16,953 bases of DNA from a virus (Duplodnaviria; Heunggongvirae; Uroviricota; Caudoviricetes): IMG/VR virus record IMGVR_UViG_2529293063_000008; one strand, written 5' to 3'. The first letter of the stretch is position 1; each line of letters starts with the position of its first letter. Below, piece after piece: positions 1,606 to 16,953 of the stretch. Under the pieces are notes generated by a model. It was not told the DNA's origin, searched no databases, and was given only the letters and a program-made list of their open reading frames with translations. A program made the translations under genes and the position numbers.

Positions 1606-1625
1606 TGTGCGACCGTGGTCGCACA
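1606..1625. repeat. Centromere-like palindrome, copy 1 (TGTGCGACC-GT-GGTCGCACA)
   Basis: Core TGCGACCGTGGTCGCA has 7-bp arms and a 2-bp centre; the same core recurs at 5900-5919 and 8345-8360. Same architecture as my recollection of the F sopC SopB site TGGGACC-AC-GGTCCCA. Confidence 0.5.
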
Positions 1626-5068: not shown

Positions 5069-5667
5069 TACGATTCTCCTTGCCCTTTTACAAGACGGGA
5101 GAAAATTGCAGATACATATTTAGCCTGATGAATAGCATCAGCCAGGGCATTGTGTCGTTCGCCATCAAATGGCATATCTTTTTTAGGATTAAAACCAATA
5201 AACTGACCAAGATTAACGATTGTTCGAACATCCTGATCATTAAAATATTCCCACGGACAGGATAAGCCAACGCGCTCATAAGCGCCGCGTAAAATTACAT
5301 TATCGAACGTTGCTCCATTTCCCCATACTTTCAATGTTTTTAAATTACAAGCATGGCAAGTAATAAAGTGTGATAATTCAAAAAGTGCATCATTAATATC
5401 AAGGGCATCATTAGTACAAATTGCGGCTCTGGCTTCCTTGCTCTGCCGCAACCACCATAAAATGGTATCACCATCGGCAACACCACCATTTAACATCGAG
5501 CTTCTGAGATTCACTGGTACATAAAAAGTGGCACCTAATTCCTCACTTTCAGGAGAAAAAAACACTGCCCCGATAGAAACAATTGGAGCACATGTATTAG
5601 TACCCATTGTTTCAAGGTCAATCATTACATCAGACCGTTTCCTGTCGTAAATTATCTGATTAGTCAC
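5068..5667 (-). CDS. DEDDh-type 3'-5' exonuclease (DnaQ-like fold)
   Basis: 199 aa; Exo I-like MIDLETMG near the N-terminus and Exo III-like HNALADA near the C-terminus; GTG start at 5667 with SD GAGGAG 8 nt upstream (ATG 5625 is an alternative). Confidence 0.75.
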   Translation of the reverse strand: MTNQIIYDRKRSDVMIDLETMGTNTCAPIVSIGAVFFSPESEELGATFYVPVNLRSSMLNGGVADGDTILWWLRQSKEARAAICTNDALDINDALFELSHFITCHACNLKTLKVWGNGATFDNVILRGAYERVGLSCPWEYFNDQDVRTIVNLGQFIGFNPKKDMPFDGERHNALADAIHQAKYVSAIFSRLVKGQGES

Positions 5668-5874: not shown

Positions 5875-6177
5875 TTAAATGGCGTTATTTTCATTTTCTT
5901 GTGCGACCGTGGTCGCACCCTCTCTAATTTCCAGATAACGCTTAATCCAAAGATTTTCTATATGCTTATTACCTGGCTGATTTGATAAATACCAATCGGC
6001 AATTACAGACTGCTTATTACTATCGGGTCGTGTCCTGTAACCGCAAGTTGGACACCAGATGACATATTCATTTCTTACCCCCGAATACCTTAATTCTGGC
6101 TTCGACGGTTTCCTGAACATAACTTGTTTACAAAGGCAGAATGGCACTTCCTGCCCGATGGCGTTTGATGATTTCAC
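5875..6177 (-). CDS. Zinc-finger protein, possibly Lar-family restriction-alleviation protein
   Basis: Two Cys pairs (PFCLC ... CPTCGYRTRP) about 27 aa apart, followed by ADWYLSN, in the pattern I recall for Lar-like proteins. Start set at GTG 6177 (SD GGAG) so that both Cys pairs are included; overlaps the upstream gene by about 50 nt. Confidence 0.4.
   Translation of the reverse strand: MKSSNAIGQEVPFCLCKQVMFRKPSKPELRYSGVRNEYVIWCPTCGYRTRPDSNKQSVIADWYLSNQPGNKHIENLWIKRYLEIREGATTVAQENENNAI
5900..5919. repeat. Centromere-like palindrome, copy 2
   Basis: TGTGCGACCGTGGTCGCACC; core identical to 1606-1625 and 8345-8360. Lies inside coding sequence at the junction of two small genes. Confidence 0.5.
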
Positions 6178-7982: not shown

Positions 7983-10900
7983 ATGACATTAAACGATTTC
8001 TATGCGGATCGCTTTGGCAGCGATCCGTTCTCGCTAATTGAAGCAGCACGGGATGAACTAACCGAGCTGGCACAGATGGCTGGTATCAACTGGCCTGCCT
8101 GTTCCGACAACATCCAACTCAACCCTCGCGGGGGTGTTGAGCGTTACTCTTCATACAATAAAACATCTCCAGAAGCTCTCGAGAAGAGCCTCAAAGGACG
8201 CGTAGAAATTTACTCCCGGCTGGAACACAGCAAAGGGATTGATTACCCGTTCATTAACTTCGTCCATAAAGGCAGCGATGCTGGCTCATGGAGCGGTTTC
8301 TCCTTCCTGTTTTCTGAATATCGCCGTGAGCAACAACGGAATAATGCGACCGTGGTCGCACAACCGGAAGAAGAACGGGCAAGAATAGAACGTCAGGCCG
8401 AAGCACGTCGTCGCCGTGAAGAACAAAAACGAATTAATGACCTGAAAAACAACCAAATTGACCATGAACGTTTGCTGGGATGGCTGGCATTTCACAGCGC
8501 GTGGGAACATGCTCCTGCAGAAGACGGCTCATGGCCATATGCGATTAAAAAAGGTATTCGTGACGTTTTTAATTCGTGTGATGTGCGTCGCGTGACCAGT
8601 CACGACAGCGCAAAATGGAGCAGGGGGCCAACCACGTATATGGCTATCCCTCTGGCTCACCTGGACGGTCGTTACGATGGTCGTATTGTGGGTTGGCAGC
8701 GAATCGACAAACAAGGTGGAAAATACCAGACCAGCGCAGTAACCAGCGGCGATTTCGTCGGTGCCTGCTTTGTTATCGGTGAGCTGAAAGGGGCGCAAAA
8801 CATCGCTGTTACAGAAGGTTTTGCTACTGGTGCATCCATCTGGCTTGCCACGAAAAAAGATAAACGCTTTGACGCTGTGGTTGTCGCTGTATCCGCTAAC
8901 AACATGGTTCATGTTGTGGAACAACTGGTAAACATGTACCCGGCGGCAAAAATCACCTGCGCACTGGATAATGACCGGAAATCTGCCACAGAAGGAAAAG
9001 GGAATACCGGCCTGCGGACTGGCTATGAAATCTTATCGAAATTCAACGATGTCCGCTGCGTCTATCCAACTTTTGAAGACGATCCGCAAATGGAGTGCAG
9101 TGACTTCAACGACCTGCACAAACTACGTGGACTTCGTGAAACAGCACGTCAACTATTTGCAACAGCAAACCGCCTGAAAACTGGTACTGATTTGCTATCT
9201 CTGACGCTCAACCGCCTGAAGACAATTAAGCGGGATAACCGTCGTACTTTTGCCAAAGAGCTGCTGAGAGCGGTGGATATTGGCATGCTAACCTGTCCGG
9301 TTCCTAACAGTCCGTCAGATTTATTTAACATGTTCTGCATCGTTCTGCGTGAAATGGGACTGGAAAATATCTATCGCGCTACGGTAAAAGACCACATTGC
9401 CCGTCGCCTGAATAAAAAGTGCCGTATTGCCCAGGCTCCGCGCTCTTTCAGCGAACGCATAACTGATCCCAATAAACGCCCTCAACATATCACATATAAG
9501 CGTTTTGAAACTTCGGTAATGACCGATGATGTCCTGAAGTACGTGCAATCACTACAGGGGATAGTCATCGTCCGTGCTGGTATGGGTTCCGGCAAATCTA
9601 CTGGATTGTTACGACCGTTAATGCATAGCTCAGAACGTGGTATCTCTGTTGCTCACCGTGTCTCCCTTATTGGCGGCCTGTGGGAAATGATGACAGAAGG
9701 AAAAGGTGTAAAAGCCGATATCCTGCACTATCAGGATCCTGGCTATCAGGAAATAGCTCCATACGCCAGTAAACTGACCATCTGCATAAACTCGATTGTT
9801 AAAAACTGCTGGCAACCGTTGATGCGCCAGCACGACTATTTTGGCTTTGACGAGGCCACACAAGGGCTACGTGCCGTTCTTTCCGGTCGGGCTATGGAAA
9901 ACCCGGTGGCTGTATTCAATACGCTAATTGACGCGCTGGCCAGAACAGAACAACACCCAATCATGGTGGATGCTGATGCGAATGATCTGCTGGTTGACCT
10001 GGCTGAACTGGCTATGAAACGCCGTGAAGAACTAGGTTTACCGGCATGGCTGCAGATCCACGTAATTGAATTACCTGTTGATGTTCGCAACCGCGAAACA
10101 GGTGAGCCAATCCGGGTTTTTTATACAGAAAAAGATCGCATCATGACCGAGGTGGTGAAAGCTGTATCGGATGGCGAAAAAATCATGTTGGCCACCGACA
10201 GCTCCACCTTTGCAGAAGATGTGACAGCCACCCTGAGAATGCATTTTCCTGGTAAGAAATTTCTGTGTGTAAACCAGAAAAACAAACCAGAGCCAGAAGT
10301 TGAAGCATTTACCAATCAACCGAAAAAGATGGTCAAAAAATACGACGGCCTGATTTATAGCCCGTCTATTTCATCCGGCGTGTCGATTGAGCAAAAACAT
10401 TTTGACCGTCATTTCGGCATGTTCTGTGGTGAAGTTGTACCCAGCGACGCAGTGCAAATGCTACGCCGCGACCGTACAGCAAAAGAATTTATTATCGGCT
10501 TTGATAAAGCTCGTGCAAAACGTGAAACTGACCCGCAAAAAATAGAACGAGCATTCGCCCAGGCATTGCTTGCTACCGCAGGTATGAACGGTGAACTGAC
10601 GGATGTCGTTTTCGATGGCGACCGTATATCAATGGGGGTGGCCAATACCGACTTTACCAGGATGAAAATTAAAGCAGCCGCTATTGAAGCGACTGCGCGT
10701 AACGACTACGCCAGCAACATGATCTGCATCATGCACAGCGACGGTTATAAGGTATCGCCGCTGGCCACCGATTATGCTGCGAATGATATCGGTAAAGAGC
10801 TGCGTAAAGAAGCGCGGGATATTGTGTGGGAACAGACACTGGATCTGCATCTCAATACAGAAACTCCACAAGAATCAGAGCGTGAAGAACTGCTAAAAAA

Positions 10901-11978
10901 ACGCGCGCTGACGCTTGAAGAACAGGCAAAACTTGTCCGCTGGGATATTGAAAACGAACTGAAACTACCGGTTGAAGAAGGCACGCTGAAATTCTATTTC
11001 GATGGTGCTCGAGACAAAGTTCGCCGCTATGAAACAATGCTTTTAGATGAGGTAACAGCTCGTCGTTACGACCGGGAAGAAGCAGCCATCAATTTTACCT
11101 ACGCATACCGTCAGGCGGGACAGTGGCAATATTTTGTAGTGACCGCGATGACTCGCGAGCAGGCTGATGATGTCTTTAAAACTAAATTCCCTGGAATAAT
11201 CGATCACAAGGTAAAAGCTACTCCTACTGTTGAAGTCGGGGCGCGCGGTTTCTATGCGCTTAAATCAGCAACTCTCCGGCAGTACTTTATCGACTGCGGT
11301 ATCAACCCTGAGACTATGACCGGCGAGGCGACTCAGGAGCGTCTCAAATTTGCTCGAGATAACCTCATGACAGCCGAACGCCGTGACCTGTTGAATAACG
11401 TTCTGCACATTGGTGGTTTTATGACGCCAAAAGGGAAGCCTAAAGTGCCGGAAGCGTTGTTTAAAAACATTTGCGACTCTCTTGGCCTTAAAACAGGTAA
11501 ACGTCGCGGCAGAGACGGCGATAAGCGTCCAACCTTGCGTTTTGTTGAGCCTGAATCAGCGGCATTTATGCTGGATATTCTTGCTCAGCGTCAGAAAGAT
11601 GGCCTAACCCTGAAAACGCGTAAAGCCGAGAAGACCGCCATCGAAATGGATCGCGATTTGGATCTCAATATATATATGGATGATAAAACGCGATCCACAA
11701 ACGAGCAGGTTCAAAACGCCCCTCATTCAGTAATTTCTGAGGCTTTGGCTGTGTTGCCAGTGGTTGTACCTGAGTCCTGGGCGATGAGTGCGCTTTCCGG
11801 TGAGGAGCTGGCCACTATGTCATCATGGTCATCAGCCAGCATAGCTATGACGTTTGCATCTCTGTACCTCACAGAGTTCATGGATCACTTATCCAGCAAT
11901 GAACTGCGGCGGTTACGTGAATACATTACCGGGAATAGCCCATGCAGCTACGAAGAGCAGGGCGCTTTCTATGGGTAA
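7983..11978 (+). CDS. repA: Multidomain replication protein: primase (TOPRIM) fused to a P-loop helicase/NTPase, N15 RepA-like
   Basis: 1331 aa; TOPRIM-like IAVTEGFATGASIWLA ... ITCALDND; Walker A VRAGMGSGKST; size matches my memory of N15 RepA. Confidence 0.85.
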   Translation: MTLNDFYADRFGSDPFSLIEAARDELTELAQMAGINWPACSDNIQLNPRGGVERYSSYNKTSPEALEKSLKGRVEIYSRLEHSKGIDYPFINFVHKGSDAGSWSGFSFLFSEYRREQQRNNATVVAQPEEERARIERQAEARRRREEQKRINDLKNNQIDHERLLGWLAFHSAWEHAPAEDGSWPYAIKKGIRDVFNSCDVRRVTSHDSAKWSRGPTTYMAIPLAHLDGRYDGRIVGWQRIDKQGGKYQTSAVTSGDFVGACFVIGELKGAQNIAVTEGFATGASIWLATKKDKRFDAVVVAVSANNMVHVVEQLVNMYPAAKITCALDNDRKSATEGKGNTGLRTGYEILSKFNDVRCVYPTFEDDPQMECSDFNDLHKLRGLRETARQLFATANRLKTGTDLLSLTLNRLKTIKRDNRRTFAKELLRAVDIGMLTCPVPNSPSDLFNMFCIVLREMGLENIYRATVKDHIARRLNKKCRIAQAPRSFSERITDPNKRPQHITYKRFETSVMTDDVLKYVQSLQGIVIVRAGMGSGKSTGLLRPLMHSSERGISVAHRVSLIGGLWEMMTEGKGVKADILHYQDPGYQEIAPYASKLTICINSIVKNCWQPLMRQHDYFGFDEATQGLRAVLSGRAMENPVAVFNTLIDALARTEQHPIMVDADANDLLVDLAELAMKRREELGLPAWLQIHVIELPVDVRNRETGEPIRVFYTEKDRIMTEVVKAVSDGEKIMLATDSSTFAEDVTATLRMHFPGKKFLCVNQKNKPEPEVEAFTNQPKKMVKKYDGLIYSPSISSGVSIEQKHFDRHFGMFCGEVVPSDAVQMLRRDRTAKEFIIGFDKARAKRETDPQKIERAFAQALLATAGMNGELTDVVFDGDRISMGVANTDFTRMKIKAAAIEATARNDYASNMICIMHSDGYKVSPLATDYAANDIGKELRKEARDIVWEQTLDLHLNTETPQESEREELLKKRALTLEEQAKLVRWDIENELKLPVEEGTLKFYFDGARDKVRRYETMLLDEVTARRYDREEAAINFTYAYRQAGQWQYFVVTAMTREQADDVFKTKFPGIIDHKVKATPTVEVGARGFYALKSATLRQYFIDCGINPETMTGEATQERLKFARDNLMTAERRDLLNNVLHIGGFMTPKGKPKVPEALFKNICDSLGLKTGKRRGRDGDKRPTLRFVEPESAAFMLDILAQRQKDGLTLKTRKAEKTAIEMDRDLDLNIYMDDKTRSTNEQVQNAPHSVISEALAVLPVVVPESWAMSALSGEELATMSSWSSASIAMTFASLYLTEFMDHLSSNELRRLREYITGNSPCSYEEQGAFYG
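8345..8360. repeat. Centromere-like palindrome, copy 3 (inside repA coding sequence)
   Basis: TGCGACCGTGGTCGCA exact; encodes ...NATVVAQ... within repA. Confidence 0.5.
8592..8603. repeat. Palindrome GTGACCAGTCAC (copy 2, inside repA)
   Basis: Flanked as CGTGACCAGTCACG; same family as 3353-3364 and 13196-13215. Confidence 0.35.
11648..11696. other. Candidate internal replication origin within the 3' part of repA
   Basis: 8-bp inverted repeat GGATCGCG / CGCGATCC (11648-11655, 11689-11696) flanks the AT-rich TCAATATATATATGGATGATAAAA and includes three GATC sites. I recall the N15 ori mapping inside the 3' part of repA. Confidence 0.3.
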
Positions 11979-14859: not shown

Positions 14860-16761
14860 TTAACCGAAATATGTCAGCCATGCTAACTGCATTGCTGACA
14901 TGGGGCTGTTTGCACTGCCGGACCACGCATAATTCTGGCCATTATAATGAAACTCAACAACGTATGAGCCATCACCAATATTTCTCACCGGCTTAAATAC
15001 CGGCTTAGATACAGGCGAAGAAGGTGCAGGCGGTTGCTGTTCTTCTACGCTCTCTTCCTCTTCCTCTTCCTCTTCCTCTATCTCAATTTCGTCGTCATCC
15101 AGATCGTCATCCTCTGACAATTCATCCGCCAGTTCAGGTATTGCTTCCAGTTCTTCTTCGTCAGGCATAACGATTTCTGGAGTATCTATTTTCAGTTGCC
15201 ATTGTCCGTTTTCGCCAACAAATTGCCCCAGAGCATCAGCAGCAAATTCCAGGTATCGACTAATCATTGTTGGGCTAAATTTGAACGCTCTTAGAGTGCT
15301 GTTCGTGATTTTTATAGAGGGGTCCTGCTCTACCAGCTGCTTAACTGTGTTATGCAGACGAACCCCGGCATCTCCTCTGGCGAATCCAGGCATTTCGTCA
15401 TCAAGCTGCTGCAATGCTTCCAGCCTGGTATTTTCGTTTCCAGTATTTGGCCTCCATGTCTTTGAGAAGTTGGCCAGCTTGAATTGCTTATAGTGTAATT
15501 GAGTGTTTTCATCGTCATGGCCTAAAATTTCCATAAAGAAAACATCTTCATCTACGTTTTTCCAACGAGGATCTACGCGGAAAAACATTTCATACGCAAT
15601 ACGGGCATAAATAGCACGACTATCTTTATAAACACGGCGGTCATCTTTGAAAAATGATTTAACCCACGGGTTAAAAGCCTTTGCTAATATGGCATTAATA
15701 CGTCCGTTTTCAGAGCGTGTGTCGTTATCTCCATAACCTTTAACGACATCATCAAAATCAGATGCTGCTGGGCATGAGCGAAGTACATTTATTAAATAAA
15801 CAAATGTTTTTGCTTCGCATAATGTATATATTTTTCTGGTTATATCATCAGAAGTTCTTTTTTTAGCTTGGCCTAAAAAATCAACGGTATACTTACCAGA
15901 AACAGTAAATGTACCTTGATACATAATCTCAATCATTCGTCTTCCTGACAATGCAGCAAGTGCAAATGCCAAAGGAGCCATACCTGAACGAGTGTTTAGA
16001 TTATTTAATGTAGCAGGGCTATTTATAATATCGTAAATAGCTTGCATATATTTAGGGTAATCAATGACCACCACGTTACGTTTCTTATTGTGCAGAACGT
16101 CCGCCCATCGTTGCTGGATAGATGCACGTTCGGCAGGGCTTAGTTGAAGATGATAGAGAATCTCATGGTTAACTTTTAGCTGATTCAACTCCTCAAGTAA
16201 GGCAGATCCTTGCTGTAGTAATTTATATAAATAATCGCGCTTATCTTTCCAGTTATCGCTAGTTAAATCAGAAATGGCGAATTGCCACTCTTTATATTTA
16301 TTTGATAATTTCAATAACTTATTATGACTTTTGTTATCGCCAATTCTGATATTAGATAAATCTTCTGATAGAGGGAGAATTAATTTTAATTTTGCCTGTA
16401 AAGCTGACATTCTCTGGCGAATATCGGCAGCAGGTAGAGAAAGCCATGACAATAGCTCCTCATTATATAAAGGATACTTTTCAGATAGGCGATGTATATT
16501 TTTTTCAAAGCTATGATGAAGTTTATCATCAAACCGTTTTCTGGCCCTGCTCATATAGGCATTGAATGTGTTGGCTGTAATTCTTTTTTCTAATCCTTTC
16601 CCCCTAAACTTTCGCTTGTCATTAAATAATGCATTTTTAAATTTTAATGCAACAGCCTTTATTTTTTTTGTTTTCTCCCCTTGAGGACGGTCAGAGTTAT
16701 CTATTGACTCAACATCGCTAACAAGTGAGTTTATTAATTCACCGATTTTTACTTTGCTCAT
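14860..16761 (-). CDS. telN: Protelomerase (telomere resolvase), TelN-like
   Basis: 633 aa; N-terminus MSKVKIGELIN..., length and an acidic Glu/Asp-rich stretch before the C-terminus match my memory of N15 TelN. SD AGGAGAGG. The gene abuts the terminal half-palindrome. Confidence 0.8.
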   Translation of the reverse strand: MSKVKIGELINSLVSDVESIDNSDRPQGEKTKKIKAVALKFKNALFNDKRKFRGKGLEKRITANTFNAYMSRARKRFDDKLHHSFEKNIHRLSEKYPLYNEELLSWLSLPAADIRQRMSALQAKLKLILPLSEDLSNIRIGDNKSHNKLLKLSNKYKEWQFAISDLTSDNWKDKRDYLYKLLQQGSALLEELNQLKVNHEILYHLQLSPAERASIQQRWADVLHNKKRNVVVIDYPKYMQAIYDIINSPATLNNLNTRSGMAPLAFALAALSGRRMIEIMYQGTFTVSGKYTVDFLGQAKKRTSDDITRKIYTLCEAKTFVYLINVLRSCPAASDFDDVVKGYGDNDTRSENGRINAILAKAFNPWVKSFFKDDRRVYKDSRAIYARIAYEMFFRVDPRWKNVDEDVFFMEILGHDDENTQLHYKQFKLANFSKTWRPNTGNENTRLEALQQLDDEMPGFARGDAGVRLHNTVKQLVEQDPSIKITNSTLRAFKFSPTMISRYLEFAADALGQFVGENGQWQLKIDTPEIVMPDEEELEAIPELADELSEDDDLDDDEIEIEEEEEEEEESVEEQQPPAPSSPVSKPVFKPVRNIGDGSYVVEFHYNGQNYAWSGSANSPMSAMQLAWLTYFG

Positions 16762-16795
16762 CTTTCCTCTCCTGATTATCCGCTCGGATTATCGT

Positions 16796-16885
16796 AACAC
16801 AATTTGAGAATAAGATAACTAATAACGCGTTAACTTAGGCACAAACTAACAGAACACAATAACGGATAATAAATAAAAACACAAT
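16796..16885. repeat. Three direct AACACAAT repeats upstream of telN
   Basis: Copies at 16796-16803, 16853-16860 and 16878-16885, between the telN start and the terminal palindrome. Confidence 0.4.
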
Positions 16886-16924
16886 ATCAGAACGTTAAAA
16901 TTTGTTCCTTGACTTTGTTCTGAA

Positions 16925-16953
16925 AATCAGCACATAATTACCCATTATACGCG
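16925..16953. other. Half of a telomere-resolution palindrome (telO-like); the window ends at or 1 nt past the dyad centre
   Basis: AATCAGCACATAATTACCCATTATACGCG differs at about 2 positions from the N15 telRL half-site as I remember it (TATCAGCACACAATTGCCCATTATACGCG) and stops in the CG-rich centre. Confidence 0.65.

Follow-up and report, generated by a model that had tools for sequence, protein, structure and literature searches.

The three direct repeats that separate the protelomerase gene from the hairpin telomere at the end of this phage DNA are, judged from their sequence and placement, the counterpart of repeats that N15 has in its 'telomerase occupancy site' (tos) as accessory elements. 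They adjoin both the telO/telRL hairpin site and the protelomerase gene, telN, and they occupy the interval between 68 and 162 nt from the dyad axis of the telomere. The feature has already been described in N15, and the DNA analysed here, a stretch of 16,953 nucleotides referred to throughout as the window, is another N15-like phage that carries it. What is new is comparative: conservation of the repeats equal to that of the core site, a register that is kept across genera, and a co-varying layout in phage PY54. It is rather probable that the accessory repeats act as tos-type low-affinity docking sites for TelN within a complex of several TelN molecules, with autoregulation of telN as a possible coupled function.

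The telN gene is the last open reading frame of the window (14860-16761, minus strand, 633 amino acids), and its 5' end faces the telomere. Its earlier designation as a protelomerase gene is well founded, as the product contains the four TelK Pfam domains (TelK_N, muzzle, catalytic and stirrup), shows identities of 77% with N15 TelN and of 74% with phiKO2 TelK, and matches the TelK crystal structure 2V6E with E=2e-295. An acidic EEEEEEEE tract is also present in TelN. The closest phage records are those of the Ravinvirus-type Escherichia phages YDC107_1 and PhiR46_1, at 98% DNA identity, and a related arm is carried by about 28 Escherichia/Shigella plasmids and by about 180 Klebsiella/Enterobacter/Citrobacter plasmids.

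Comparison with PhiR46_1, YDC107_1, N15 and phiKO2 reveals that the window terminus, ...CCCATTATACGCG, is half of the telO palindrome CCCATTATACGC/GCGTATAATGGG, in keeping with the terminal palindrome reported by the first-pass annotation. The telO dyad axis falls between 16952 and 16953. The window thus stops one base beyond the axis, which indicates that its end is the hairpin tip of a linear prophage and not an arbitrary cut; the same end is annotated as 'telL site' in the PhiR46_1 record. By this comparison the window is the telL arm of an N15-like linear plasmid prophage. The distance from the hairpin axis to the telN ATG is 191 nt, and these 191 nt are all the DNA that lies upstream of telN. 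Two related records, CP025712.1 (YDC107_1, locus L001, from position 5154) and the K. pneumoniae AR_0046 plasmid (L010), continue past the telomere into an inverted telN arm that is perfect or nearly so, and the annotation of YDC107_1 gives the second telN as fragments. This inverted second arm is hairpin read-through in assembly, not biology, and the same kind of read-through accounts for the two places per record seen in many of the plasmid matches.

The features of the telN arm are as follows, with minus denoting the telN sense.

16759-16761, minus strand: telN start codon (CAT), read from the sequence
16766-16773, minus strand: telN Shine-Dalgarno sequence AGGAGAGG, read from the sequence, with its GGAG core kept in the ten-lineage alignment
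16791-16803, minus strand: accessory repeat D, ATTGTGTTACGAT, with 0 mismatches to the 13-mer consensus; holds AACACAAT at 16796
16791-16799, minus strand: extended -10-like element TGTTACGAT (TG-n-TACGAT), the outer part of D, 29 nt before the ATG
16848-16860, minus strand: accessory repeat C, ATTGTGTTCTGTT; holds AACACAAT at 16853 and CAGAAC at 16850, position kept across lineages
16873-16885, minus strand: accessory repeat B, ATTGTGTTTTTAT; holds AACACAAT at 16878, position kept across lineages
16888-16893, plus strand: CAGAAC (GTTCTG in telN sense) on the telomere side of repeat B, read from the sequence
16912-16924, plus strand: inward-facing degenerate copy ACTTTGTTCTGAA, immediately beside the telRL outer arm, with 3 mismatches to the 13-mer; holds GTTCTG at 16917
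16926-16938, minus strand: outer (L3/R3-type) arm of the resolution half-site, ATTATGTGCTGAT, by alignment with N15 and phiKO2 telRL
16939-16953, no strand: telO half-palindrome TACCCATTATACGC plus one base, by comparison with relatives

The outer arm was assigned by alignment with the N15 telRL (annotated at 24775-24830) and with the annotated phiKO2 telRL, and the telomere half-site as a whole spans 16925-16952. The CAGAAC at 16888 is kept only in the Escherichia/N15-type clades and is absent from Klebsiella and Citrobacter arms. The AACAcA core of the inward-facing copy, 34-39 nt from the axis, is kept in 10 of 10 lineages. In Klebsiella-type arms (L010, L013 and L015, nt 14-40) the inward copy and the outer arm together form a 27-bp dyad, TTGTGTGCTGAT-T-ATCGTAACACAG. 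An RNA gene or a small protein within the arm was considered and rejected: the arm contains zero open reading frames, and Rfam at a permissive threshold returned from it only chance snoRNA-like matches.

The octamer AACACAAT occurs exactly three times in the 16,953 bases when both strands are searched. All three copies are on the plus strand (16796-16803, 16853-16860 and 16878-16885), precisely where the first-pass annotation had listed three direct repeats, and they fit into 90 bp of the interval that runs from the start codon of telN to the half-site of the telomere. The placement given in that annotation, between the telN Shine-Dalgarno sequence and the terminal palindrome, also holds, since 16766-16773 and 16925-16952 enclose the repeats. 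The CAGAAC motifs it recorded are found at 16850-16855 and 16888-16893 and the inverted GTTCTG at 16917-16922; CAGAAC at 16850 makes up the distal part of unit C, and GTTCTG at 16917 that of the inward unit at 16912-16924. About 0.93 copies of AACACAAT are expected over the whole 17 kb, and chance does not come near to explaining three in 90 bp. The whole-window count alone is not extreme, with 14 of 200 shuffles reaching three copies.

The octamers are the cores of 13-mers whose consensus in telN sense is ATTGTGTKMYGAT, and these 13-mers (B, C and D) are by sequence resemblance degenerate copies of the L3/R3-type outer arm of telRL. The best of the outer-arm copies is repeat C, which differs from the N15 outer arm at two positions. 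When up to two mismatches are allowed, four of the five matches to ATTGTGTKMYGAT in the window lie in its last 165 bp and on one strand; a cluster of more than two same-strand matches appeared in 0 of 300 dinucleotide shuffles of the whole window and in 0 of 2000 shuffles of the intergenic arm. The ATTGTGTKMYGAT consensus was picked after seeing the data, and the outer-arm 13-mer of N15 telRL served as an independent query. With up to three mismatches, 4 of its 11 matches are in the last 165 bp, again on the same strand, and these (16791, 16848, 16873 and 16926) are the same four sites that ATTGTGTKMYGAT identifies.

The conservation of the repeats among related elements is revealing of the constraint upon them. 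Arms, defined from the dyad axis to the tel ATG, were collected from 41 loci by an exact search for the telO core; 29 of them are distinct, and these fall into 10 lineages at less than 90% identity that cover Escherichia, Klebsiella, Citrobacter, Enterobacter and Pseudocitrobacter and include N15 and phiKO2. The window arm is 58-69% identical to the arms of the other lineages. Across the 10 lineages, mean conservation in the 24 columns of the three 8-mers is 0.93, with 15 columns invariant, which equals the 0.93 of the 28-bp telRL half-site and compares with 0.67 in the 123 spacer columns. The difference between repeats and spacers is pronounced (Mann-Whitney p=2e-8), and 0 of 20,000 random placements of three 8-mers equalled the conservation of the repeats. 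Of 20 sites that vary within the clade of the window itself, only 1 is in the 24 repeat columns. Repeats that are not conserved among relatives were the outcome that the first-pass annotation had set against its own proposal; the repeats proved instead to be as conserved as telRL across ten lineages.

The register of the repeats is likewise conserved. The axis-to-ATG distance is 189-192 nt in all arms, and the alignment as far as nt 162 has zero net indel, the window clade having a compensated -1/+1 pair around B. More specifically, 28 of the 29 distinct arms have the start of TTRTGTTAYGAT, the element within D, at nt 151 from the axis and the remaining arm has it at nt 150, whereas the gap between D and the ATG varies from 28 to 30 nt across arms. 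Because D is fixed relative to the axis while its distance to the ATG varies, the constraint appears to be relative to the telomere.

The copies also have a preferred polarity. Between nt 29 and 176 the telN arms contain 35 outward-facing cores versus 3 inward-facing ones, and the sop arms of eight lineages contain 28 outward versus 0 inward. The window holds one arm only, so the mirror orientation is read from relatives: mirror-image copies are present on the opposite arm in E. albertii pEA8_3 (99.5% identical to the window), in N15 and in six more lineages. Mirrored arms are what would be expected of a protein that reads both half-sites. The sop-arm copies are at other distances (about 100-123 and 148-161 nt), such that the two arms are not strictly symmetric. 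A comparison of the G/A variants of the outer arm with the accessory copies in the N15-like group offered too little variation to inform on co-variation.

Such co-variation can be seen at the greater distance of PY54. The PY54 Tel is 43% identical to the protein of the window, and its arm DNA is without evident similarity to N15-like arms save for the repeat motif. The PY54 telRL is described as a 42-bp palindrome with flanking inverted repeats (Hertwig 2003; PMC10612081). Further copies of the outer-arm motif of PY54, AATAGGTTACTG, are found on its tel arm 65, 92 and 140 nt away from the axis, the outer arm itself being at 15, and the motif is mirrored on the other PY54 arm. In total 12 matches are present where 3.3 would be expected, and as many as 12 occurred in 0 of 200 shuffles. 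Measured from the axis, the layout is 14/68/93/150 in the window and 15/65/92/140 in PY54, and in both phages the outermost copy is found just upstream of the protelomerase start. The motif itself differs, being AATGGGTTAC in PY54 and ATTGTGTT in the N15 type, and the PY54 arm is shorter, at about 173 nt. The repeat motif therefore co-varies with each phage's own outer arm, which points to the reader of the outer arm, the protelomerase, as the reader of the copies; this co-variation is the best computational evidence that protelomerase may recognise them. In P840, a relative of PY54, the flanking inverted repeat is dispensable for processing in vivo (PMC10612081).

The annotated tel ATG of PY54 (AJ564013.1), at position 765 of locus L017, overlies the third accessory repeat. 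A further ATG in the same frame, at 798, comes with a GGAGG Shine-Dalgarno sequence and marks the point from which the protein resembles TelN; the true start of PY54 tel is therefore probably 33 nt downstream of the annotated one. On inspection, two distant marine phages, VP882 (locus L056, 705-880) and phiHAP-1 (locus L057, 590-870), both have 3-6 direct, lineage-specific units, GGGCTA..TATGTATGTA, in the interval from telRL to the protelomerase gene. With arrays in these phages as well, accessory repeats may be general to phage protelomerase systems.

Expression of telN has to be considered alongside its product. The claim that the telN promoter must fire through the repeat region is topologically sound, as the 190-bp arm is all the DNA upstream; in a linear prophage nothing but the arm precedes telN, and the promoter must therefore be inside it. 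A position-weight-matrix scan in telN sense yielded weak candidates only (5-10 bits, with poor predicted -35 elements), and a standard promoter scan of the arm returned zero telN-sense promoters. The sole candidate that holds its position in all lineages, likewise with weak scores, is the -10-like element of D, whose TG-n-TAYGAT is invariant in the 29 arms and ends up 28-30 nt before the ATG; the other candidates overlap B or C. D may be conserved as a high-fidelity TelN site (GAT is also the end of L3), as a -10 element, or on both counts. Negative autoregulation of telN by TelN occupancy is plausible given this arrangement, although it is advanced here only tentatively. A literature search on telN promoters, transcription and autoregulation found nothing relevant.

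The only strong match of the standard scan points into the hairpin and is clade-specific. This promoter-like sequence, TTGACT-18-CATAAT (16909-16938, plus strand), has 10 of 12 consensus matches, and the telRL outer arm supplies its -10. Its -35 TTGACT is restricted to the clade of the window and is found neither in N15 nor in Klebsiella elements, and the hairpin-pointing promoter is for that reason probably fortuitous. A polymerase that rounded the covalently closed tip would make telN-sense RNA.

The need for a promoter within the arm lends some substance to an alternative in which the repeats are mainly transcription signals, that is, telN promoters or UP-like elements bound by RNA polymerase, with TelN confined to telRL. 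Each unit, TGTGTTAYnnT, has the look of an extended -10 element (TG-n-TAYnnT), and the highest-ranking promoter candidates of every lineage overlap with one of the repeats (at 76, 92 and 157 nt from the axis). The invariant element of D, moreover, stands 28-30 nt upstream of the start codon in an arm where the promoter must be. This explanation is nevertheless improbable. The motif copies the outer arm of telRL, and the -10-like half of it is not kept in B or C. D is held at a fixed distance from the axis and not from the ATG, and mirror copies exist on the sop arm, where the nearest gene is more than about 290 bp away. The PY54 motif, moreover, differs from that of the window and matches the telRL arm of its own phage.

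The same observation from PY54 bears upon the proposal that the repeats bind some other protein (SopB, IHF, Fis, H-NS or a phage repressor) that organises or silences telomere-proximal DNA. The high AT content of the region (31-35% GC) and its A-tracts speak for nucleoid proteins, but a host protein would leave the lineage-specific motifs unexplained, and the motif shares homology with the segment of telRL read by protelomerase and co-varies with it in PY54. As for SopB, the SopB-type palindrome in the window, GCGACCGTGGTCGC, is a different sequence; binding by another protein is, on balance, quite unlikely. Chance recurrence, or the non-functional relics of duplication in AT-rich intergenic DNA, would be in accord with the shortness of an 8-mer and with the 14 of 200 shuffles that reach three copies. 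It would not account for the clustering on a shared strand, which the shuffles never reproduced, for conservation at the level of telRL in 10 lineages (0 of 20,000 placements), for positions that are invariant in 29 arms, or for a single clade-variable site of 20 in the repeat columns, and it can be given hardly any credence.

A partition centromere was also considered for the repeats and rejected, as AACACAAT bears no resemblance to the sopC-like palindrome GCGACCGTGGTCGC. This 14-bp palindrome has three exact copies in the window (1609-1622, 5903-5916 and 8346-8359), a number reached in 0 of 200 shuffles, and one of the copies is inside a repA-like open reading frame (7983-11978). The copies look like dispersed partition centromere sites of the sopC/N15 type, the query pattern being that of F sopC. 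An N15 centromere sits within repA (PMC2847241).

To return to TelN, the evidence as a whole makes its binding to the accessory repeats likely. B, C and D, at 68, 93 and 150 nt from the axis, would be low-affinity docking sites for extra TelN molecules, which would dock probably through the C-terminal stirrup/CTD1 domain. Docked TelN and hairpin-bound TelN would together keep the terminal 160 bp or so in a nucleoprotein complex whose geometry is fixed, and TelN would thereby be concentrated at the telomere as well as at the replicated junction. As a coupled function, TelN occupancy would lower telN transcription; this negative autoregulation is to be expected of such a complex because the promoter is in the arm and D overlaps the conserved -10-like element. 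The distance from the outer arm to D is 136 nt, or about 13.0 helical turns, and in PY54 it is 125 nt, or about 11.9 turns. These near-integral values would place the outer arm and D on the same face of the helix, an arrangement compatible with looping or wrapping of the DNA.

A more far-reaching reading, which is possible but on the whole unlikely, is that the repeats are something other than independent weak sites: about 150 bp would be wrapped or looped by several TelN molecules into a scaffold of fixed geometry that is common to phages from the N15-like group to PY54, and this scaffold would both cap the hairpin and sense TelN. The cap would block host nucleases, and the sensing of TelN would set telN transcription. 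Compatible with this reading are the axis register that is invariant at about 60% identity, the -1/+1 pair at B, the helical phase and the parallel with PY54. If true, the structure would be a minimal bacterial counterpart of shelterin or of a T-loop cap.

Conservation at the level of the core, invariant register and co-variation in PY54 together argue that the accessory copies are functional, and the comparison pinpoints the bases to mutate in them. Should TelN at D set the expression of telN, a low-copy linear replicon would keep enough enzyme to resolve and cap its ends while avoiding the overproduction of a DNA-cleaving protein. TelN and tos are used as tools in linear cloning vectors, linearised E. 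coli chromosomes, yeast chromosomes with phage telomeres and 'doggybone' DNA, and tos comprises about 250 bp outside the 56-bp core.

Among the known systems, N15 is the closest comparison. The term tos denotes its telomerase-occupancy-site (PMC13381899), and its natural target is about 310 bp long and includes degenerate copies of L3/R3 designated L1, L2, R1 and R2 (PMC12624138). The first-pass annotation had stated that the N15 telomere is flanked by additional protelomerase binding repeats and had proposed a comparison with them. The repeats of the window indeed align with those of N15, which are degenerate L3/R3 copies (PMC12624138), and the cores are at 16, 70, 94 and 151 in N15 and at 16, 69, 94 and 151 in the window. 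N15 has the same gene order (telomere, then telN), an identical telO core and outward polarity on both arms. The TelN proteins are 77% identical, whereas the arm DNA is only about 63% identical and the spacers are unrelated; N15 is also without the -35-like TTGACT that points at the hairpin in the window clade. The outermost block of N15, TGTTCTTTGATTGTGTT, is common to both of its arms at about 145-165 nt, and the N15 tos primers of the pJAZZ work have at their end GTGTTACGATATCCAGAGAC, which corresponds to repeat D (PMC2847241).

The 56-bp telRL, which consists of telO plus L3/R3, is sufficient for efficient recombination by TelN according to PMC12624138, which cites Deneke et al. 2002, and that paper also suggests that the stirrup/CTD1 reads the outer arm. 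[quoted passage not shown]

B, C and D occupy the same positions in phiKO2 and further Klebsiella elements as in the window, and the TelK of phiKO2 has the stirrup domain, the proposed reader of the outer arm. Unlike the window, Klebsiella arms have an extra copy near nt 132, and the copy next to their telRL is an inverted 12-mer with hardly a flaw. In monomeric form, TelK slides along DNA and makes pauses at target sequence before dimerising (PMC3575837), a behaviour that fits half-site-like copies acting as local traps. The DNA in structural and single-molecule work on TelK was a 44-bp duplex or a bare target-site insert, without the natural arm repeats (PMC12624138, PMC3575837).

Functional analogies can be drawn beyond the protelomerases, and they are analogies only, as there is zero sequence homology to the repeats of the window. 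The arm sites of lambda Int in attP and the accessory sequences of Xer recombination (cer and psi) are likewise oriented sites in fixed register that flank the core cleavage site of a tyrosine-recombinase/topoisomerase IB-like enzyme and build a higher-order complex. The lambda arm sites are bound by a separate N-terminal domain with a different specificity. The accessory sites of the window, in contrast to the lambda arm sites, copy part of the core site itself.
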